Below, piece after piece: positions 23,055 to 59,827 of a stretch of DNA of 59,827 bases. The notes beneath the pieces were generated by a model. The model was not told the origin of the DNA, did not search any database, and saw only the letters and a program-made list of their open reading frames with translations. The stretch is taken from positions 1 through 59,827 of the IMG/VR virus record IMGVR_UViG_3300042292_000091; one strand, 5' to 3'. The position numbers and the translations under genes are program-made. The stretch comes from a virus. Its lineage: Duplodnaviria; Caudoviricetes. Numbering within the stretch: position 1 is the stretch's first letter; each line of letters starts with the position of its first letter.

Positions 23055-23692
23055 ACAGCCTCCTGCGCTACAAAGTGCAGCATGGTGAACGGGAGAGATA
23101 CCGCCGTCTTCCTGCCTTCACGTGGGTAGATCAGTACACGTGTGCCAGATTCCAACCGCATGGCATTGACCGTACCCTTCTCAATGCCTTCAAAGTCATC
23201 AAAGACAAAGATGGTGTGGTCATGGATGATGCTCGGCAGGTACTGGAAATCTTCTTCTTGAACCCTGCCATCAAAGTAGATCAGATCAATGCCAATCTTC
23301 TTGTCGGCCAAGTTCTTGAACATCTGTGTCGATGACTGCTTGGGGTATTGGAAAATGCCCGTGTCGCTTTGACTTATCTGTATCTGATTGGATACATCGC
23401 AGGTATATATCTTTGCTGACGGCATGGCCTCACGCATGGTTCGGGTAGAGACCCCGATGAACGTGCCCACTTCGGCAATAGCCTTCGGCTTAAAGAATGC
23501 CACCAATTTATAAAGTTCTACCGCATCGTCGTACGGAACTGAACCAGTGTTGTAGTCTGCGTCAACTCGCAGCCTCTGTTGTTCTTCAATAATCTTTTCG
23601 ATGGTCTCGTACGGGAAGTCATTTACCTTCTCGTCCATGATACCCCAGAAGATATTGCTAAATCGTTGTCGTCCAATCTGTACCGGATTCAT
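23051..23692 (-). CDS. Class I SAM-dependent methyltransferase
   Basis: IAEVGTFIGVST motif I, IYTCD, DLIYFDG, FVFDD. Confidence 0.8.
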   Translation of the reverse strand: MNPVQIGRQRFSNIFWGIMDEKVNDFPYETIEKIIEEQQRLRVDADYNTGSVPYDDAVELYKLVAFFKPKAIAEVGTFIGVSTRTMREAMPSAKIYTCDVSNQIQISQSDTGIFQYPKQSSTQMFKNLADKKIGIDLIYFDGRVQEEDFQYLPSIIHDHTIFVFDDFEGIEKGTVNAMRLESGTRVLIYPREGRKTAVSLPFTMLHFVAQEAV

Positions 23693-23928
23693 TTTTTAAC
23701 CCCTGTTTTAAGTGCTGAGTCTTCTCGTTCTTTAAGCATTGCATCTGCAATGACGTAAGACATCTTAGAGACTTCTTCGGGACGTAGTAAGACACCGTGG
23801 GATATGAGATATCCCTGCATGGCTTTCGCAGCCATGTAGTCTCGCAGTGTCATGCCGTGACCCCACCACTTTAGACGTTCGCCTTCCAACTGTGGGAAAG
23901 CAAACTCATTCTTAGGCTTACCACTCAC
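23689..23928 (-). CDS. Conserved small phage protein
   Basis: AFP...GMTLRDYMAAKAMQG...SYVIADAMLKER, a common phage motif; GAGGTAG SD upstream. Confidence 0.75.
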   Translation of the reverse strand: MSGKPKNEFAFPQLEGERLKWWGHGMTLRDYMAAKAMQGYLISHGVLLRPEEVSKMSYVIADAMLKEREDSALKTGVKK

Positions 23929-23946
23929 TTTGCTACCTCAATAAAA

Positions 23947-24533
23947 ACCTTACCAAACCAGACCGTGCCCCGCCTTACCCGACCATGCCCGACCCCACCA
24001 CGCCACGCCGTACCCCACCTTGCCAGACCTAGCCTAACCCGACCATGCCTCGCTACGCCGTACCAAACCTCACCAAACCCGACCAGACCCTACCCGACCC
24101 GACCTGACCCTACCAAACCCCGCCGCGCCGCGCCTTGCCGGACCTGACCCGACCACAAATAAAAATTTCTTGCCAGAGAAACCAAACCCTACCAAGCCCC
24201 ACCTTACCGCGCCCGACCCCGCCCCGCAGGACCACACCAGATAAAAAATTTCTCGCCAGAGAAACCAAACCGAACCTCACCGCGCCCCACCATGCCCCAC
24301 CTAACCTCACCACACCCGACCGAGCCACGCCGAGCCTGACCGCGCCACGCCTCATCAAATAAAAATTTCTCGCCAGAGAAACCGTACCCTACCGAGCCAT
24401 ACCCTACCCGACACGACCTAGCCACGCCGCGCCATACCGTGCCTGACCAAACCTGACCTCACCAAACCCGACCTCACCGGGGCGCACCGTGCCAGACCCT
24501 ACCCAACCTCGCCAGACCGCGCCAGACCTGATC
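23947..24533 (-). ncRNA. Array of phased GGY-NN pentamer tracts with hairpin separators (putative guide RNAs, VIPR-like)
   Basis: Plus strand RCC every 5 nt: tracts 23947-24154 (42 units), 24181-24238 (12), 24264-24351 (18), 24381-24528 (30); 4 of 102 triplets deviate; begins right after the stop of the RAMP-like gene. Confidence 0.8.
24157..24383 (-). repeat. Three copies of separator GGTTTCTCTGGCRAGAAATTTTT(T)AT
   Basis: Plus-strand copies at about 24157-24183, 24241-24266 and 24357-24383; hairpin TTTCTC-TGGC-GAGAAA plus T tract. Confidence 0.9.
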
Positions 24534-24538
24534 TCAAA

Positions 24539-25114
24539 TTAAACTTCCTTAAAACTCGTCACTCTAAAAGTCCCAAAGGGACCACGTTTCTCTGGCCTAA
24601 AATCACCGATACCCATGCTCTCACCCGCTTCATTCAGCAGACGATGTGCGTCCTCAGACGAGAGCATTTGATCATTCAGAATTAAACGGAACTTCGCGCC
24701 CCATTTATCGAATCGGGGGCGATAACGCATCACCCGACCCTTGGTTGCAGGGATCGTGACCGGACGGCCATCAACCTCAAAGTTCCCTGCCGGTTTACCG
24801 TCTTCACCCAAGATGGTGATGGTGTCTGTGTCAATACGCACAGCAGACGGAACAACAAATTTTAGAGTCTTACGCGAACCGCGCATTTTGTGGTTCACGC
24901 CCGCGTTCGCCATCGTTGCAGGGATAGAGAAAGCATTAAAGTAGTATGTTCCATCCTGCGCGATGTAAGCATTCTTCGTCGCCTCGTCTCGCGGATTCAT
25001 ACTATCGACCATCACACGACGGGTCGCCTTGCCTTGCTCTGCCTGTTCCGCAAACTTGTGGATCAAGAGCGGAGTGTTACCACGGATTTCAACTTCAATC
25101 GTCTTCATGTTCAT
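24539..25114 (-). CDS. Stand-alone RAMP/Cas7-like RNA-binding protein (191 aa; Vipr-like)
   Basis: N-terminal strand IEVEIRGNTPLLIH, YYFNAFSIPATM, RYRPRFDKWGAKFRL, C-terminal Gly-rich loop GIGDFRPEKRGPFGTFRV; adjacent to pentamer array. Confidence 0.7.
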   Translation of the reverse strand: MNMKTIEVEIRGNTPLLIHKFAEQAEQGKATRRVMVDSMNPRDEATKNAYIAQDGTYYFNAFSIPATMANAGVNHKMRGSRKTLKFVVPSAVRIDTDTITILGEDGKPAGNFEVDGRPVTIPATKGRVMRYRPRFDKWGAKFRLILNDQMLSSEDAHRLLNEAGESMGIGDFRPEKRGPFGTFRVTSFKEV

Positions 25115-25123
25115 TACCTCTGT

Positions 25124-25519
25124 TTAAGCGCGTTCGCGGATTGCGATTTCGCGTGTCAAATAAAACTGTGCTTTCTTCAAGTCCTCGACCGGATCGGCTC
25201 CGACCTTCTTACCGGCGCGGCTCACATACTTCACCACGTTAAAAAGGTAAGCGTTCTCAGTCAGACCTTTTGCTTCTGCGTAGTCTAGAAAGTCTACGCC
25301 CCCGACTGTGTAGTGCGGCGGCTTGTTCACAAGATCAGGCTTGTTTTCTAGTACGTTGAGTGCGGCCTTTGTTTCTCGCACCGCCTCCATAATCTTTGAT
25401 GACTTATTCTTCGACCGCACGGTATACACGTACTGCGGCTTTACCTTTGCGATCTTTGCTATTTCCTTGACCGACTTCCCCGACTGCAACAACTTTAAAA
25501 TCTGCCTTGACTTCGACAT
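25124..25519 (-). CDS. HTH + DUF3310-like protein
   Basis: GKSVKEIAKIAKVKPQYVY HTH; VNKPPHY...FNVVKYVSRAGKK...EDLKKAQFYL. Confidence 0.8.
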   Translation of the reverse strand: MSKSRQILKLLQSGKSVKEIAKIAKVKPQYVYTVRSKNKSSKIMEAVRETKAALNVLENKPDLVNKPPHYTVGGVDFLDYAEAKGLTENAYLFNVVKYVSRAGKKVGADPVEDLKKAQFYLTREIAIRERA

Positions 25520-25799
25520 AACTTAATATCTCCTTGCGTAGGTTCTCTACGTTTGTCTCATCTATCACTACTGCGATGCCACCGGCTTTACGTATGTCAT
25601 CGTGATGCTTCAGTTGAAGCGCGGTGGGCTTTCCACCGTTTGCTTTACACTCTATACCATAAAACAACCCGGCGATACAAATAATAAAATCGGGTGCGCC
25701 AGAAGAAGAGAAGCCAGTTCCTATCGGCATCGTGTAGTACGCGCCGAGTTCATTGAGAATCTCCTTCACTCGTTTCTTTACTCGTCCTTCCGGTGTCAT
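25404..25799 (-). CDS. VRR-NUC nuclease
   Basis: MTPEGRVK, GAPDFI, GIECKANGGKPTALQ, GGIAVVID. Confidence 0.85.
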   Translation of the reverse strand: MTPEGRVKKRVKEILNELGAYYTMPIGTGFSSSGAPDFIICIAGLFYGIECKANGGKPTALQLKHHDDIRKAGGIAVVIDETNVENLRKEILSYVEVKADFKVVAVGEVGQGNSKDRKGKAAVRVYRAVEE

Positions 25800-26154
25800 G
25801 CTCTACCTTCCTATAAATGCCATTAGTTAATGGCATCCCTCTAAGTTCATTTAAAAGTTTTTCGCTGATGACAAACTGATACCACGTGTCATCAAGCCTC
25901 CAACCTACATCCTCTAATACTTCGGGGATGTCTACGACCTCAAACGCTTTACTGTCTATTGAATGAATCAACACCAACTTCTCTTTGATCTCGGTTGGCA
26001 AGTCCTTGAGCGGGAATTGCCTGTTATACTTTTTATCTACGTAAATAACGAAATGGTCGGACGGCGTTCTCTTCACGTAAACAACCCAATGCCCCGGCCA
26101 GATAGCATCTTTAACCGGAGCCAAGGATGTTGGATCGCCCTTCTCCTCGCGCAT
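25750..26154 (-). CDS. Hypothetical protein
   Basis: 134-aa ORF in operon. Confidence 0.55.
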   Translation of the reverse strand: MREEKGDPTSLAPVKDAIWPGHWVVYVKRTPSDHFVIYVDKKYNRQFPLKDLPTEIKEKLVLIHSIDSKAFEVVDIPEVLEDVGWRLDDTWYQFVISEKLLNELRGMPLTNGIYRKVEHDTGRTSKETSEGDSQ

Positions 26155-26157
26155 ACA

Positions 26158-27207
26158 TCACCGGGGAAGAAGTAAGCATTGGTTCATATCTACCTCGTCG
26201 GTGCTTGATGAGTACGCACCCATCTCCTGCCAGAACGTCGAGATTGTTACTTCGGGAATTATCTGAGCCGATGCTCGGTGTGTCTTCAACATCATTAAAG
26301 AGTATTCCAACTGACGCTGATACTCTTCGGGAACCTTACTCAGTGACTTGTACCATTTAAAAGGTACAGTCTCCTTGACGTAGTTAAACCGATTACCGAA
26401 CGGCAACTCGTCGTCGGCAATGAACTTGTCCATCGCTTCAATCATAGGCTCGGGGCTAATCGCGCCCAGTAGTACGCCGCCGTTAAAGTTGGGGCAATAC
26501 ATCCACTTCTCACCGTCAAAGAAGTCCTTAGACTTGTCGATAGATTCCCTAAATTTATTGCGTTTAGTCGTGTAGTTAGAGTAATGCGTGTCAAATTCTT
26601 GACGCATGGACGACGGCATCTCCAACATGGTCACTTCATTCGCTGCCAACTTAGCCAGAAATGTTTGCAGATTCTCAGTCAATTTGTTCATCGGAAACTG
26701 TGGCTGCGAACTGATGCCGTGTCCGTAGTTTCTGTCAATAAGATCATCAACGATGTCACGCAACTTTGTGGACAAACCGTTTTGTGCGTTACCAATACTT
26801 CTAATCAACGAGTCTGCGGCATCATGCGACGATTCTGGTTTGAGTTTACTCTGCAAATACCGGGGGTTCGCTGTACCTATTTGATGGCGGGTAGCACCGA
26901 CATTGAACGCACCCCAAGGGGTATATAAGTTTAGCGTACCCCCGTCTCCGACTTTGCCGGTAATACTAAATTTGCAGATTTTCATACCAAGAGAAGAGAC
27001 CATCTCTATTGCATAGACTTGCCCGGTCTGGAATGTTTCCACGTGACCGATAAATGCCTTGCCACCCGAATAGTTGTAGACACAAGCAACGCTGCCAAAC
27101 AACGGGCTTGTAGTAACTGCTTGAACTAGATCGTGAGGCAATGGGTTGTACTTCTCCTTGAAAAACAAATCACCCACATTGAACTTAACCTTCTCCTTCT
27201 TCGCCAT
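26158..27207 (-). CDS. Hypothetical protein (349 aa)
   Basis: Long ORF with GAGGTAG SD. Confidence 0.7.
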   Translation of the reverse strand: MAKKEKVKFNVGDLFFKEKYNPLPHDLVQAVTTSPLFGSVACVYNYSGGKAFIGHVETFQTGQVYAIEMVSSLGMKICKFSITGKVGDGGTLNLYTPWGAFNVGATRHQIGTANPRYLQSKLKPESSHDAADSLIRSIGNAQNGLSTKLRDIVDDLIDRNYGHGISSQPQFPMNKLTENLQTFLAKLAANEVTMLEMPSSMRQEFDTHYSNYTTKRNKFRESIDKSKDFFDGEKWMYCPNFNGGVLLGAISPEPMIEAMDKFIADDELPFGNRFNYVKETVPFKWYKSLSKVPEEYQRQLEYSLMMLKTHRASAQIIPEVTISTFWQEMGAYSSSTDEVDMNQCLLLPR

Positions 27208-27356: not shown

Positions 27357-28550
27357 TTACGCTTTCATCACCACACGCTTGTTACCGTTCGGCGGCACGA
27401 ATGACTCGCGGCCACCCTCTTTGATCACCCAGATCGACGGGATCGGGGTCTGCCATGTCACCGGGTCTTCTACGTAACCGTCCGTGAACACGATCATGCA
27501 GTCTGCGTTAATACGATTCTTAACGATGTAGTCACTGACACAGCCCGCACGAGTACCGCCACCACCCAAAGGCTTGAGCATCCGATTGATCTCTGAGTAG
27601 TTACCCTCAAAGACTTGCTCACCATGCACCTCGGTGTCCCACCACAACACACGGATACGCTCGGGCGGCAAGGTATCGCACAGTTCTTGGATACGTGATG
27701 CGACCTTGGCAATGTCCTTGTTGTTGATCGACCCTGACGTATCGACCGCCAGAATGACCTCACCGATTGTTTCGTTGATCGTGCTAGGCAGATAGTGTCC
27801 ATCGGCTAAACGATTCTTATTGAACCGCCGCCATGTGAACTCATCCGACCCGCGCACATTGGCAGTCCAGAAGTCCTGCAACACCTCGCGCCAATCAATC
27901 TCGGGCTTCATCAAATCTTGAATGGCTCGGGGAATGTTCGCCCCAAACCGACCGGCCAACGTACCACCTTGGTGTATGGCTTCATCAACCTTGCTACCCA
28001 ATTTCTCCAAATCACCCGGCTCCATGCCTTCGACTAGATCATCTCCATGATCATCGAACGATTCTTGTGGACGACCTCCGCCGCCTCCCTGCTCTTGCTC
28101 TTGTTTAAGATAGTCATACACACGACGGACAGACCAATCGTGGAACATCGGATCGTAGTAACAACCCGCCGGTAACTTGCACAACTTCTTGTCTTGAATG
28201 TTTGTGATGATGTCGTTCACCACATAGTCCATCGCAATGTTGGCTAGTTTCTTGTCTTTCTTCATCAAGTCCTTGTGACGGGGAATGTGCTTGAGCATCA
28301 CGTGCAGAGTCTCATGCAGCACAACACCGGCAATCTCTTCGTCAGTCAGTGTCTCCAAAAACTTTCTACCGTATCGTTTGTTCAAGCCATCGGTGTACGC
28401 TGTCGGACACTGCCGCTCGTCATCAACAAGGGAAGTCTCACCCATTAGGATGACACCGCCGTATAAGCAAGTCTCAGGATGGCGAATTAGTTTAATGTTC
28501 GCCTTCTTCAACCGCGTTTCTAGATCGACTTCACGCACGACTGCGTTCAT
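27357..28550 (-). CDS. Metallopeptidase (HExxH) + VWA domain protein (DUF2201-like)
   Basis: TAYTDG, VLHETLH, DTSGS MIDAS, GGGGT, FTDGY. Confidence 0.85.
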   Translation of the reverse strand: MNAVVREVDLETRLKKANIKLIRHPETCLYGGVILMGETSLVDDERQCPTAYTDGLNKRYGRKFLETLTDEEIAGVVLHETLHVMLKHIPRHKDLMKKDKKLANIAMDYVVNDIITNIQDKKLCKLPAGCYYDPMFHDWSVRRVYDYLKQEQEQGGGGGRPQESFDDHGDDLVEGMEPGDLEKLGSKVDEAIHQGGTLAGRFGANIPRAIQDLMKPEIDWREVLQDFWTANVRGSDEFTWRRFNKNRLADGHYLPSTINETIGEVILAVDTSGSINNKDIAKVASRIQELCDTLPPERIRVLWWDTEVHGEQVFEGNYSEINRMLKPLGGGGTRAGCVSDYIVKNRINADCMIVFTDGYVEDPVTWQTPIPSIWVIKEGGRESFVPPNGNKRVVMKA

Positions 28551-44288: not shown

Positions 44289-44588
44289 ATGAAAGAATCC
44301 AAGATGATGATGAAGAAAGAAGTGGCCTTCATGAAGAAGAAGGGCGCTCCGAAGTCCATGCTCAAGCATGAAATGCGCGAAATGGCTGACAAAGGCGGTC
44401 GCGCCATGAAGAACCGTACGGCTGACAAGATGGGTCGTGCGATGGTCAAGAACAAGAAAATGGCCGGTGGCGGTATGGCTTATTCGGACGGTGGTTCTGT
44501 CTATCGCAAGGGCGCTGATGGCGTTGCCAGCAAAGGCAAGACCAAGGGCAAGATGGTTCGCATGATGAAGGGTGGCTACTGTGGCTAA
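44289..44588 (+). CDS. Small K/M/G-rich basic protein
   Basis: Shared motif ADGVASKGKTKGKMV. Confidence 0.65.
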   Translation: MKESKMMMKKEVAFMKKKGAPKSMLKHEMREMADKGGRAMKNRTADKMGRAMVKNKKMAGGGMAYSDGGSVYRKGADGVASKGKTKGKMVRMMKGGYCG

Positions 44589-45033
44589 AGCGGCCAAACC
44601 CCCGGCTCCAAAAACCGGATCGTCGGATGATTTAATCCCACGTTCCATGCTGCCCGATTCTTCGGTGATCCCGGAGTGGCGGCAGTTTGGTTATGGTGCT
44701 GAAGGCCCCGCTGTCCCGAAACCCGCTCCTAAAAAGCCGGGTGGCAAGGCTGCTGGCGGTCACATCAAGAAGATGGCTGGTGGCGGTCAGGTACCGGCTA
44801 GAAGGAGTAAAGGTTCAGGGTCTATGCAACGAGCCTCTGAACAACGATTCCGCGATAAAATTTCTACCCCAGTAATTCCCGATCCGGTCAAATATCCGGA
44901 ATACATCGAGGAAGTTGGCGAGGAGCGTACTAGCGGTCCCCGTATGCGTAAGGGCGGCGTAGCCCGTTCTTCTGCTTCCAAACGTGCTGACGGCATTGCT
45001 CAACGCGGCAAGACCCGAGGCAAAATGGTGTAA
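44572..45033 (+). CDS. Basic low-complexity protein
   Basis: C-terminal RADGIAQRGKTRGKMV. Confidence 0.65.
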   Translation: MATVAKAAKPPAPKTGSSDDLIPRSMLPDSSVIPEWRQFGYGAEGPAVPKPAPKKPGGKAAGGHIKKMAGGGQVPARRSKGSGSMQRASEQRFRDKISTPVIPDPVKYPEYIEEVGEERTSGPRMRKGGVARSSASKRADGIAQRGKTRGKMV

Positions 45034-45035
45034 CT

Positions 45036-45473
45036 ATGGATCGTATTCCCAAATATACGGCTGGTATGTTCAAAAAGAAGATGCCTCGGTTTGGGGCTAT
45101 GAGCATTAGAAAACAACGCTTACCGCTTCCGCCTAAACCGCGAGCAAAAAAATTCCAAGACGGCGGCGAGATTGAAGAGATCATCATTGGTCCCGGCGCT
45201 GCTCAGGAAGAGTACGCTGGCGAGATGGCTCAAATCGAAGAGCGTAAGAAGCAGAACGAGCAGAAACGCCGTGATGCAGAGAGTAAGGCTCTCGTTAAGA
45301 AATACTACGAGGCCAAGAAGAAACGAGCCGAAATCAACCAAGAAAACCGAGAAAAGTCTATCAAACACTTTACTCGTAACGTGCGTACGGCCCGTAGCGG
45401 GGGCAAGATGGACTCTTGCTGCCGTGGTGACGGCATCGCCAAACGCGGTAAAACCCGAGGTAAATTTGTATGA
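45036..45473 (+). CDS. Basic protein
   Basis: C-terminal RGDGIAKRGKTRGKFV. Confidence 0.65.
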   Translation: MDRIPKYTAGMFKKKMPRFGAMSIRKQRLPLPPKPRAKKFQDGGEIEEIIIGPGAAQEEYAGEMAQIEERKKQNEQKRRDAESKALVKKYYEAKKKRAEINQENREKSIKHFTRNVRTARSGGKMDSCCRGDGIAKRGKTRGKFV

Positions 45474-46138
45474 AGCGCAAGGTTCGTCGCTACGCTGAAG
45501 GCGGAGTGGGTTACGAAGAAGACCCAAAGCCGGGTGTGCAATCCGATAAAAAATCGTCGAGCAAAAAGTCGGGTAGTGGTAAGACTCCCTCCCGTCGCGT
45601 TAGTTCGATGGAGTTCATTAAAAAGTATGAGACTTCAGGTCCTTCTAGCCGGATAAAAGAAGAGGCTGAAACGACCGTAGCTCGTACTAAGTCCGGTCTT
45701 CCCGGCGACCGCAGCACCGGGTACAGCGATAAAGGCAAGAGTCCGTATGTTGATATGGACCAAGAAGATGTAGATCGCGCTTTGAAAAGAATGGGTGAAG
45801 TTGCAGGTGCCGCTGCCAGTGTAAGCGCTGCTGGGGCAAACCTACCTCTTCGCGCCAAGCAGATGCTTCGTCGTATGCAAACGGCTCGGGCTAATGCTGC
45901 TGAACGTGCTACGGATAAAGCCGGTGAAGCGGCTCGGCGTGGTTTGTCCCGTCGTGGCATTCCTCGTTATGACGAGCGGTATCGCGCTAGTTCGGAAGGT
46001 TCGGATCGTCGTGCGGCGTATGCAGACGAACTCCCGGAAGGACTTAAATTCAAGCGGGGCGGTTCAGTGAAATCGTCAGCTTCGCGGCGTGCTGACGGTA
46101 TCGCTAAGAAAGGTAAAACCCGAGGCCGATTTGTATGA
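45470..46138 (+). CDS. Basic protein
   Basis: C-terminal RADGIAKKGKTRGRFV. Confidence 0.65.
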   Translation: MKRKVRRYAEGGVGYEEDPKPGVQSDKKSSSKKSGSGKTPSRRVSSMEFIKKYETSGPSSRIKEEAETTVARTKSGLPGDRSTGYSDKGKSPYVDMDQEDVDRALKRMGEVAGAAASVSAAGANLPLRAKQMLRRMQTARANAAERATDKAGEAARRGLSRRGIPRYDERYRASSEGSDRRAAYADELPEGLKFKRGGSVKSSASRRADGIAKKGKTRGRFV

Positions 46139-57966: not shown

Positions 57967-59827
57967 ATGAACCAATATCCTGCGGCGGGACTCGCGTCCC
58001 TTGTAGCCGCTCAAGGCCGTAACGGGGATTCCGCCCTCGTTCACATGACTCCCGAAGAGGTTCGCAGCCTCCAAGCCATCGCCCGTGCACAGGGTGTGGA
58101 ACTGCCGGTCAATCCGGTAACAGGGGTCCTTGAAGCGTCGGCCCTTAGTAGATTTTTAAGTTCTATTGGAAGGGGCATTGCTAACGTCGGTCGCACGATA
58201 ATCCAAAACCCTCAGACCACCGCATTGATTGCTGGCACCGCCTACGGCGCTATCAAGGGCGATCTACAAAAGGGTCTTGAGGCGGGCATGAAAGCCTACG
58301 CCGGGACTAAGTTGCTCGGTGGTATTACGAGCGCAGTACAGCAAGGTAGGAGAACCCCCGGTATCGCGGGTCCTGCTGGATACAGAGAGGCTTCTCGTGG
58401 AGCAGATGACTTTGGCGAAGTTGCACCGGGTTTGATGGATGTTAAGCCTACGGTTGAAGCTCCGTTAGGTAGAAGTCCTGCCAGTGGTGGCGGGCTTGAT
58501 GCGCTCTTACAACGAATACTAGGCGGCGGTCAGTCGGGTACTACGCAACAAGGGCAACCCTCGCAAGGACAACAGGGACAGCAGGGTATTTTCGGTCGAG
58601 GCACTGACCCGATCATGCAGGCGATTGCGCTTTATGCAATGAATCGTGCTGAACAAAAGGCGACGGGACAACGACCGGGTATTCCAACTCCGCAGCCTCA
58701 ACAGTACCGCAACGTCCAGTTTAATTACGGACGGGTCAATCCAAGGTTCCGTGAGCCGGGGCAACCGTACTTTATTGACGGCGGCTATACCGATCAGGGC
58801 TACACCACGCAGTTCCCTGATTACAGTAGGCCACCACCTACGGGGCAAGCGCCACAAGCGCCTAATCAACCGCCACAGACTCCTCCACGGAACCAACCTC
58901 CTCCTTACGCGCAGGATGATCGTCGCTACGGGCTGCAAATGGCTTCGGGCGGCGTCGCCTACGCGGATGGCGGAGTTTCTGAAACGGCGAGCAACTTGGA
59001 GCAAGACGAGCAAAGGAGGCGCGAAGAATACTTCCGTAACCTCCGCCCTTTCGCTCCCGCCCTGACTGATCAGTATCGCACCGATGCAACTCGCATCGGG
59101 TCAGTTCAGGGCGTTGATCCTTATAACCGCGATCCGCTTACCCGCCTGACGCAGCCCGCACCCAGAGGTGTAGGCACGGAAGGTATTGCCTCACTCCAAC
59201 CGTACGATGAATCGCTCGCTGAGTGGTATCGTTCGCTATTAGTCCCCCCGATTGGCCGTGCGCCGCTTGAGACGGGAGACTATTTCACGACTACGCCGAA
59301 GCGTGGTGCGACTAACTATGGCCCGGTAATTAATTACCCGCCCCCGCCACCTCCGCCAATAGTTGTCCCGCCGCCCCCGCCACCTCCGCCGCTCACCTGC
59401 CCAAATGGTGAGCCTTTTGACTTAATTCGTTTGGCACAGGGACTTGACCCGTGCGGCATTGGCGGCTGCGGCGCTAACGAATATTTTGACGTCAGCACGA
59501 AGCAGTGCGAGTGTATGCCCGGCACTACTCGTGGTGCCGATGGCGTTTGCGGTAAAGGACCTCCGGGACCTCCGGGACCTCCGGGACCTCCGGGACCTCC
59601 GGGACCTCCGGGACCTCCGGGACCTCCGGGGCCGCCTCAACCTCCGGGACCTCCGGGACCTCCGGGACCTCCGGGACCTCCGGGACCTCCGGGACCTCCG
59701 GGGCCGCCTCAACCTCCGGGACCTCCGGGGCCGCCTCAACCTCCGGGACCTCCGGGACCTCCGGGACCTCCGGGGCCGCCTCAACCTCCGGGACCTCCGG
59801 GACCTCCGGGACCGCCGGTGCCTCCGG
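57967..59827 (+). CDS. Internal virion protein with poly-Pro, Cys-rich and collagen-like regions, 3'-truncated (not in ORF track)
   Basis: Hand-translated, no stop from ATG 57967 to window end; [16 protein letters not shown]...[11 protein letters not shown]-terminal motif. Confidence 0.8.
59557..59827 (+). repeat. 9-bp tandem repeat GGACCTCCG encoding (Gly-Pro-Pro)n
   Basis: About 30 triplets, mostly GPP with QPP interruptions; runs off window end. Confidence 0.95.

Follow-up and report, generated by a model that had tools for sequence, protein, structure and literature searches.

Viral Interference Programmable Repeat (VIPR) is an RNA-guided DNA silencer that is related to CRISPR and was first described in 2026 (bioRxiv 10.64898/2026.04.26.720920). 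The system has been known since April 2026 and was characterized mainly in one coliphage and one Pseudomonas prophage. Four preprints deal with it, three of them by a single group. The effector protein, Vipr, is a minimal repeat-associated mysterious protein (RAMP) that branches before Cas5, Cas6, and Cas7 and is usually accompanied by one accessory vap gene, and the guide RNAs (vrRNAs) contain 9–16 GGY/NN repeats (Y, pyrimidine; N, any base), followed by an invariable 3' tail (10.64898/2026.04.26.720920). On double-stranded DNA, the NN pairs are read with a skip of one target base in each unit, and binding was shown to repress transcription; in nature the system is directed at competing mobile elements, in which the skipped base mostly falls at the codon wobble (10.64898/2026.04.26.720920). 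Seven VIPR types and six vap families were distinguished, with varied array layouts, some stand-alone vipr genes, and, in some types, a pairing with nucleases or helicases (10.64898/2026.04.26.720920). One protomer binds each repeat, and the residues that hold G1, G2, and Y3 have been named; in Escherichia phage SUSP1, the GGY contacts are H17, R138, D177, W178, and R179, as well as K33, E71, M72, and C173 (10.64898/2026.04.26.720927). SUSP1 needs both vipr and vap1 to resist its satellite, a six-unit footprint reads invariant codon positions, and solo decoy vrRNAs are known (10.64898/2026.10.15.759431). From sequence alone, 99 VIPR-like clusters were recovered (10.64898/2026.10.21.760802). 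The present analysis concerns a locus in the IMG/VR virus record IMGVR_UViG_3300042292_000091, which was analyzed over its entire length of 59,827 nt (hereafter, the window). The locus consists of a vipr gene and four tracts of GGYNN units located directly downstream, and it very probably belongs to VIPR.

Judged from its sequence, the product of the window gene is a divergent Vipr and a homolog of the solved SUSP1 Vipr. The original prediction had pointed to a 191-aa gene, and this was confirmed as an open reading frame (ORF) on the minus strand (Table 1). Its probable start is the ATG at 25108 (MKT...), giving 189 aa, and 11 of the 12 closer homologs in alignment A2 begin at the residue aligned with M3. 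The single sequence matched the PDB chain 36pp_D ("SUSP1 Vipr protein") in the G-loop region (E = 2.3e-7), and the family profile from the 70 diverse homologs in alignment A1 matched PDB 36pp over its full length (positions 1-187, E = 9.3e-23). Alignment with SUSP1 Vipr by hhalign had a probability of 99.4% and an E-value of 1e-21 over 174 aligned columns, and genes of the Felixounavirus/SUSP1 family were matched over their full length by tblastn at 24–27% identity. The product also matched phrog_4652 (function unknown; E = 5.8e-23), and no family was assigned to it in Pfam, NCBIfam, or PADLOC. The family comprised 839 proteins in a word-indexed search and 2923 clusters at 50% identity in an exhaustive search at E ≤ 1e-3.

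The residues that contact the GG and Y bases in SUSP1 were located in the window protein by hhalign, where H17, R138, D177, W178, and R179 aligned with H19, R132, D171, F172, and R173, respectively. F172 is an aromatic residue that replaces W178, and R132 and R173 were invariant in all 70 sequences of alignment A1. SUSP1 C173 aligned with M167. By this alignment, the window Vipr keeps the base-specific GGY contacts but differs from SUSP1 in steric or backbone contacts. The protein has the G-rich motif GIGDFRPEKRGPFG at its C-terminus, the G-loop read GIGDFRP...GPFG, and G168, G170, G178, and G181 were invariant or nearly so in the family alignment. No model of the protein was present in the ESM Atlas.

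The array lies on the vipr strand and starts 8–10 nt past the TAA stop of vipr. A register scan and a tract caller resolved it into tracts A–D, each in its own 5-nt register. Across these tracts, 98 of 102 units conformed to GGYNN, exactly the count that the original prediction had given, and the per-site chance of GGY was 0.093 for the base composition of the array itself and 0.033 for the minus strand of the window. All 16 NN dinucleotides were present in the array, Y was T in 67 units and C in 31, and the nonconforming units were mostly TGYNN and were conserved inside modules shared with related phages. The tract caller identified no other tract of at least five units on either strand of the window. 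Tracts A, B, and C each closed with a conserved tail of ~28 nt, GGTTTCTCTGGC[G/A]AGAAATTTTT.. (direct-repeat family D2), which recurred in relatives, and tails were very diverse across the wider clade. Neither Tandem Repeats Finder (TRF) nor a direct-repeat search detected CRISPR-like 20–40-nt repeats at regular spacing in the window, and Cas families were absent from the 11 genes around the locus in PADLOC and from four genes in NCBIfam. The absence of cas genes and canonical CRISPR arrays, noted at the outset, was thus upheld. Rfam gave nothing near the gathering score within 23600-25300, and no hammerhead was found there. Transcription of the array would most simply occur by read-through from vipr.

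The linkage of gene and array is retained in relatives. Among 13 close IMG/VR loci (91–98% Vipr identity), all 12 that have DNA beyond the gene carried two to five GGYNN tracts, which started 7–12 nt after it. The original prediction had proposed that homologs be inspected for adjacent pentamer arrays; in a wider scan with alignment A2, in which the best 80 of 98 IMG/VR loci were kept (41–98% Vipr identity), tracts of at least five conforming units were found on the same strand directly upstream and/or downstream of vipr in 79 loci. The sole exception (L056) contained an opposite-strand tract only. The 80 loci include 12 of the first close set and several near-identical ones, and the count of 79 therefore overstates independence because of these near-duplicates. 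Tract lengths ranged from 5 to 98 units, indicating that long tracts are normal for this clade. In loci L061-L081 (54–58% Vipr identity), the arrays are located upstream of vipr and consist of 10–17-unit tracts with 2-nt gaps after a GGTAC unit, the register shifting each time; these arrays may represent the "staggered" layout that is named in a figure legend of the discovery preprint. Among L018-L029 and the window, Vipr was 91–98% identical and flanking genes 40–78%, which suggests either a recent exchange of vipr between phages or an unusually strong constraint on vipr.

The locus would operate as a VIPR system in which the Vipr protein acts with four vrRNA stretches of GGYNN units encoded directly downstream on the same strand. 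By homology to SUSP1, Vipr protomers would coat the RNA, one per unit, as a helical filament, burying GGY and exposing the NN pairs; the pairs would then read double-stranded DNA and leave out one target base in each unit (NNxNNx...), and transcription of the bound gene would be blocked. The original prediction had arrived at much of this scheme: one subunit per GGY, presentation of NN, and a gapped target spelled jointly by the dinucleotides agree with published VIPR, where the mechanism was shown, and extend to the window by homology. Transcriptional silencing, the output it had considered, is likewise the published one, directed against competing mobile elements, and its mention of an architecture reported as VIPR was borne out by the 2026 bioRxiv preprints. 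Features specific to this copy are that no vap gene was found, that long tracts chain modules of 6–10 units, and that a T-rich motif ends three of the four tracts. Taken as a whole, a VIPR locus with a mechanism given by homology, vap-less modular tracts, and a guide against a clamp motif is a highly probable explanation relative to its rivals, held only slightly less firmly than VIPR membership itself.

The closest described system is VIPR type II of Escherichia phage SUSP1 (vipr, vap1, and four vrRNAs; PDB 36pp). Both systems encode a Vipr of ~190 aa with the H, R, D, aromatic, and R contacts kept, and both are phage-borne, with GGYNN on the strand of the gene, a conserved tract cap (on three of four tracts in the window), and no self-target. 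SUSP1 vrRNA4 is reported to read codon positions 1 and 2 of a conserved motif carried by a different mobile element, with the wobble base left out, as the module in tract D described below would. On the other hand, the two proteins shared only 37% identity over the last 65 residues (BLASTP). SUSP1 contains vap1 (28031..28471) between vipr and the downstream vrRNAs, whereas the window has no gene there. In SUSP1, one vrRNA lies upstream and three downstream, each with its own leader of ~50 nt; in contrast, all tracts of the window are downstream, beginning 8–10 nt after the stop. The tracts contain 12–42 units in the window and 9–16 in SUSP1, the tail is a T-rich motif of ~25 nt without supported structure rather than a pseudoknot, and the predicted target is a phage replication gene rather than a satellite recombinase. 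Vap-less, densely packed arrays may already be covered by VIPR types I and III-VII, given the stand-alone vipr genes and varied architectures that the available text reports for them; long tracts of modules shared between phages are not mentioned in that text. Cas7 and the other RAMPs that form the backbone of class 1 CRISPR-Cas have in common with Vipr an RNA recognition motif (RRM) core, a glycine-rich loop, a thumb, and polymerization along a guide RNA with periodic base flipping (10.64898/2026.04.26.720920; 10.64898/2026.04.26.720927). The window differs from class 1 CRISPR-Cas in that no CRISPR repeats, spacers, or Cas families occur around the locus and in that its guide is predicted to be gapped, with two bases read and three buried. 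No Cas7 chain in PDB matched the window protein at the sequence level, either with the single sequence or with the family profile.

When the tracts were written as NN strings and seven distinct arrays of close relatives were compared, modules of 6–10 units recurred at different positions in different tracts of related phages. Units 1-9 of tract A in the window are identical at NN to units 2-10 of tract 1 in locus L020, and units 21-28 of tract D are identical at NN to units 11-18 of tract 3 in L018 (16 of 16 bases), with a different Y in five of eight units. Over all NN-identical runs, 25 of 87 units had a different Y. NN identity was itself the criterion for choosing these runs, which makes the NN figure circular and leaves only the Y figure informative. 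The combination of near-saturated Y divergence with unbroken NN identity is expected under selection on the NN code. Compared with L018, tract D of the window resembles the L018 tract with a 10-unit module inserted at a shared GG-AC junction. A tentative reading, which we regard as possible but rather doubtful, is that long tracts are libraries of independent guide modules of 6–11 units that are exchanged and re-joined by recombination within the GGY scaffold, a Cas1-free form of "spacer" shuffling, and that are written against invariant codon positions of conserved motifs (here R-Y-Y-L-N-G of phage clamp-like genes). If so, one guide could silence a whole family of highly diverged rival phages instead of one strain.

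Targets were sought with the published one-base-skip rule (NNxNNx...), and collections were scanned by exact pattern only, with shared modules as seeds. The pattern ATNCGNTANTANCTNAANGGNAYNCT, which corresponds to units 22-30 of tract D and units 12-20 of tract 3 in L018, had five matches in IMG/VR. Each of the five was in frame, placed the skipped base at the wobble, and fell within K/Q-D-[IM]-R-Y-Y-L-N-G-[IM]-L near the start of genes encoding 182–216 aa. The 8-unit core of the tract D module (GA AT CG TA TA CT AA GG) matched at 16 of 16 bases, and the 11-unit stretch matched at 20 of 22 on three of the matches. The L018 guide carries two units outside the pattern (AA GA, reading K-D) that matched 4/4 bases in four of the five matches, and its full 11 units matched 22/22 on two of them. 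Both matched genes tested contained Pfam DNA_pol3_beta_2 (PF02767), the central domain of the beta sliding clamp, with scores of 46.5 and 38.7 bits against a cut-off of 27 bits, and both matched phrog_947, "DNA polymerase processivity factor." The matched gene in L105 follows a DNA polymerase gene that is family-A-like by motif reading. In pairwise comparisons of the five matched genes, identity was 216/220 at the read positions, 44/110 at the skipped positions, and 551/1500 in the flanks (next 150 nt). The same motif was found in clamp-like genes of cultured phages (50 records); the 8-unit core was read at 16/16 in gp31 of Burkholderia phage BcepC6B and gp15 of Bcep781, and the 11-unit guides matched at 16–20 of 22 in the four phages examined. 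The short clamp-like phage genes are labeled "RusA-like Holliday junction resolvase" in PHROGs (phrog_3007) and RefSeq (NC_005887, NC_004333, and NC_054891), yet score above the Pfam DNA_pol3_beta_2 cut-off; this label looks like a propagated mis-annotation.

Judged by these pattern matches, the chances are about even that units 21-31 of tract D are directed at the conserved D-[IM]-R-Y-Y-L-N-G codons in a short, beta-clamp-like gene for replication that other phages carry. With such a guide, the system would serve as a weapon against rival phages in the same cell. Other module patterns with 16.5–20 fixed bases were used for calibration. In IMG/VR, no matches were obtained with units 28-37 of tract D or units 1-9 of tracts A and B, and units 1-9 of tract C had one match, which was rejected as out of frame. 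With units 28-37 of tract D, the metagenome set had one match, in frame, in a sugar-isomerase-like ORF on a high-GC bacterial contig; it was rejected because the match did not extend into the flanks and about one chance match is estimated for 20 fixed bases (collection size not given). Altogether, five other modules had no credible target in the exact-pattern scans. With regard to the original prediction of targets in competing phages or host genes, one module matches a clamp-like motif in other phages and the five others lack a credible target. No self-targets were apparent, as windows of 8–12 units from all tracts had no match in their own genome above shuffled guides; likewise, no 9- or 11-unit guide window exceeded the shuffled null in the related loci and the SUSP1 locus (406,865 nt). 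Genes with PF02767 were absent from the window and from the records of five relatives (24–74% complete).

The locus is a further example of a published system, and its vap-less compact layout, module mosaics, and clamp-motif guide may be new. It places a Vipr protein-RNA pair in an abundant clade of uncultured phages with hundreds of near relatives, and it contributes three testable points. First, VIPR can do without vap. Second, blocks of guide units act as modules that can be swapped within long tracts, where selection shows at NN but not at Y. Third, the sequence of a guide may follow a protein motif that is constant across genes only ~37% identical in DNA. A clamp-motif guide would carry over to phage replication genes the "codon-periodic, escape-proof" targeting that was described for SUSP1 satellites. 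If both the module and the motif interpretations are true, such arrays could be a source for mapping competition among phages in nature.

Several observations weigh against the favored explanation, a VIPR locus with a clamp-motif guide. In the protein, SUSP1 K33 falls in an indel and E71 and M72 align with F62 and S63 (hhalign), and the predicted RRM, thumb, and G-loop fold of the window protein is deduced from sequence alone. No equivalent of vap was found among the neighbors by BLASTP with vap1 or by clustering of neighboring genes, though SUSP1 needs vap1 in natural infection. At the RNA level, the tail hairpin was no better than shuffled sequences (z = −0.6 and +0.5), and RNAalifold on 17 tails yielded no consensus structure. 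No promoter-like site adjoins the array, the sole call in 23500-26300 being ~1.2 kb upstream (26258-26286), and no terminator-like site was called on the strand of the array in that interval, the T-rich tail included. No RNA run containing the stretch was found, and two contig-only runs, guessed to be RNA, shared 6% of sampled words. The target depends on a single module. In the window, only eight of its units are perfect, the rest drift (20/22 at best), and an inserted module comes next. The exact version in the window, R-Y-Y-L-N-[GS]-T-V-V (tract D units 23-31, also a calibration pattern), had no match in IMG/VR, and no other guide of the seven related arrays matched the five target records. 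The guides of SUSP1 are reported to converge on one element, whereas no such convergence was observed here. When two mismatches were allowed, the 8-unit core had three matches in four bacterial genomes versus six for a reversed control.

The same machinery could instead be turned against the host, with the clamp-motif guide aimed at chromosomal dnaN, whose product contains R-Y-Y-L-N-G, so as to shut down host replication during host takeover. The phage has its own DNA polymerase and primase-helicase and no clamp gene, and it may not need the host clamp. The L020 version of the module reads GA GT CG TA TA CT AA, i.e., D-V-R-Y-Y-L-N, which we take to be the proteobacterial form of DnaN, and one match in a metagenome-assembled genome (MAG) of Hyphomicrobium reads E-T-R-Y-Y-L-N-G at 14/16. 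However, the perfect fit of the 11-unit L018 guide to two of the five matches involves the phage-type K-D-[IM] form, the matches in bacterial genomes with up to two mismatches were no commoner than those of the reversed control, and published natural VIPR targets are mobile elements, as far as the available text goes (10.64898/2026.04.26.720920; 10.64898/2026.10.15.759431). Host dnaN is therefore an unlikely target. It is less likely still that the target is destroyed or nicked, and not merely silenced, by a nuclease encoded elsewhere, e.g., the PD-(D/E)XK-like gene two places upstream, as in the nuclease-linked VIPR types III–V. That gene matches the phrog_93 "endonuclease" family, and the pairing of some VIPR types with nucleases or helicases, reported in 10.64898/2026.04.26.720920, lends this some plausibility, but it accompanies vipr only in the 12 closest of the 80 loci, all of one phage lineage. 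PADLOC identified no defense-system nuclease around the locus, and the loci of the clade share no gene family except spurious array ORFs and a recombination-type gene (24 loci).

The array might also be decaying or a decoy, its fused, tail-less guide blocks being no longer processed and either soaking up Vipr or persisting as neutral remnants. The 30- and 42-unit tracts far exceed the 9–16 units published for SUSP1-type vrRNAs, tract D has no tail, its clamp module is interrupted by an inserted module, and solo decoys have a precedent (10.64898/2026.10.15.759431). Against this, GGY is kept in 98/102 units, NN modules are conserved between phages while Y drifts, tracts of up to 98 units are common across the clade, and vipr is intact and 91–98% identical among relatives in which neighboring genes are only 40–64% identical. 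We consider decay or a decoy role very improbable, slightly more so than target cleavage. Almost no weight is given to the notion that the array is not an RNA guide at all and represents a DNA structural element or a low-complexity coding region beside an unrelated gene. Spurious ORFs of 55–82 aa do cross the array on both strands, and TRF detects only weak periodicities of 10–30 nt; nevertheless, the register changes from tract to tract, positions 4 and 5 of each unit are precisely the variable ones, the same-strand linkage of repeat and gene recurs in 79/80 loci, and the protein is homologous to one solved in complex with such RNA.

The genes that flank vipr and the array differ among relatives (Table 1). 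The upstream neighbor, which encodes a protein with a helix-turn-helix (HTH) and DUF3310, was beside vipr in 12/80 loci, the closest ones, at 40–64% identity, where Vipr was 91–98% identical. Neither this protein (E = 0.028) nor the 79-aa protein downstream (E = 0.33) resembled SUSP1 vap1 in BLASTP. Clustering of neighbors within 2 kb across the 80 loci revealed no family common to the whole clade, apart from spurious ORFs through the arrays; the largest real cluster covered 24 loci and is the recombination-type gene, which from its motifs is presumably a YqaJ-type exonuclease of phage recombination modules. The locus is treated as a vap-less system because its neighbors are unlike vap1 and no gene family is common to the clade. 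The missing vap does not exclude membership in VIPR, since stand-alone vipr genes have been published. The earlier statement that no nuclease is adjacent is only roughly right, given the phrog_93 gene two genes upstream. The ORF of this nuclease-like gene shares 116 nt with the HTH-DUF3310 ORF, in a different frame; probably one start was mis-called, or else the overlap is real. The phrog_2201 gene was found downstream of vipr in 15/80 loci (among them loci in the range L061-L077, L094, and L095) in three bands of Vipr identity (45%, 57–58%, and 93–98%), a distribution more scattered than simple synteny would give.

Table 1. Coordinates of vipr, the vrRNA tracts, tails, guide modules, and neighboring genes in the window.
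Feature	Position	Strand	Details
vipr	24539..25114	minus	ORF list, 191 aa; matches to PDB 36pp, SUSP1 Vipr, and phrog_4652
vrRNA tract A	24379..24528	minus	30 units, 28 GGY; units 1-9 and 21-28 are NN modules common to related phages
vrRNA tract B	24262..24351	minus	18 units, 18 GGY; units 1-6 identical at NN to L020 tract 3
vrRNA tract C	24179..24238	minus	12 units, 11 GGY; inside the 9–16 repeats published for SUSP1-type vrRNAs
vrRNA tract D	23945..24154	minus	42 units, 41 GGY; without tail; closes with GGTTTTTATTGAGG, the ribosome-binding site of the following gene
Tail copy 1	24356..24383	minus	GGTTTCTCTGGCGAGAAATTTTTATTTG; opens with the final 5-nt unit of tract A; weak hairpin, minimum free energy −6.5 kcal/mol, z −0.6
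Tail copy 2	24239..24266	minus	tract caller and direct-repeat family
Tail copy 3	24156..24183	minus	G to A in the putative stem
Guide module, tract D units 21-31	24000..24054	minus	NN = GA AT CG TA TA CT AA GG AC GT GT; with one skip per unit reads D-[IM]-R-Y-Y-L-N-G-...
Guide module, tract D units 28-37	23970..24019	minus	identical to L020 tract 3 units 12-21, 10 units, Y included
HTH and DUF3310 protein, upstream neighbor	25124..25519	minus	Pfam DUF3310, E = 2.8e-16; weak HTH matches
79-aa protein of unknown function, downstream neighbor	23689..23928	minus	phrog_2201, E = 1.4e-14; ribosome-binding site abuts tract D
phrog_93 "endonuclease" family gene	25404..25799		two genes upstream of vipr; E = 1e-16; PD-(D/E)XK-like

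The window is an entire IMG/VR record with an estimated completeness of 94%, and the phage is an uncultured, lytic-looking water phage of ~60 kb. In a PHROGs scan, the phage was found to have genes for a DNA polymerase, a primase-helicase, a helicase, a large terminase, and a portal, and no tRNA genes were found in the window. Its terminase was ~50% identical to terminases of aquatic phages, Pelagibacter phages among them. Megablast with the locus yielded no match in cultured phages, and a scan of genome contigs for the clade recovered only five distant copies, in MAGs from unrelated phyla. Three further repeats were observed in the window. At 59557-59827, ~30 tandem copies of the 9-nt unit GGACCTCCG reach the last position of the record (TRF score 381; a 72-nt period was also detected); they may encode a collagen-like Gly-X-Y repeat or may have arisen as an assembly artefact where the contig ends. 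Between 31961 and 34346, the palindromic motif TGCCATTA(CC/GG)TAATGGCA occurs five times where gene orientation switches (direct-repeat families D3 and D6) and looks like a repeated operator or a promoter-associated site. At 44572-46138, a conserved 3' end of 51 nt (family D5) is common to three consecutive small genes (44572..45033, 45036..45473, and 45470..46138), which look like tandem paralogs.

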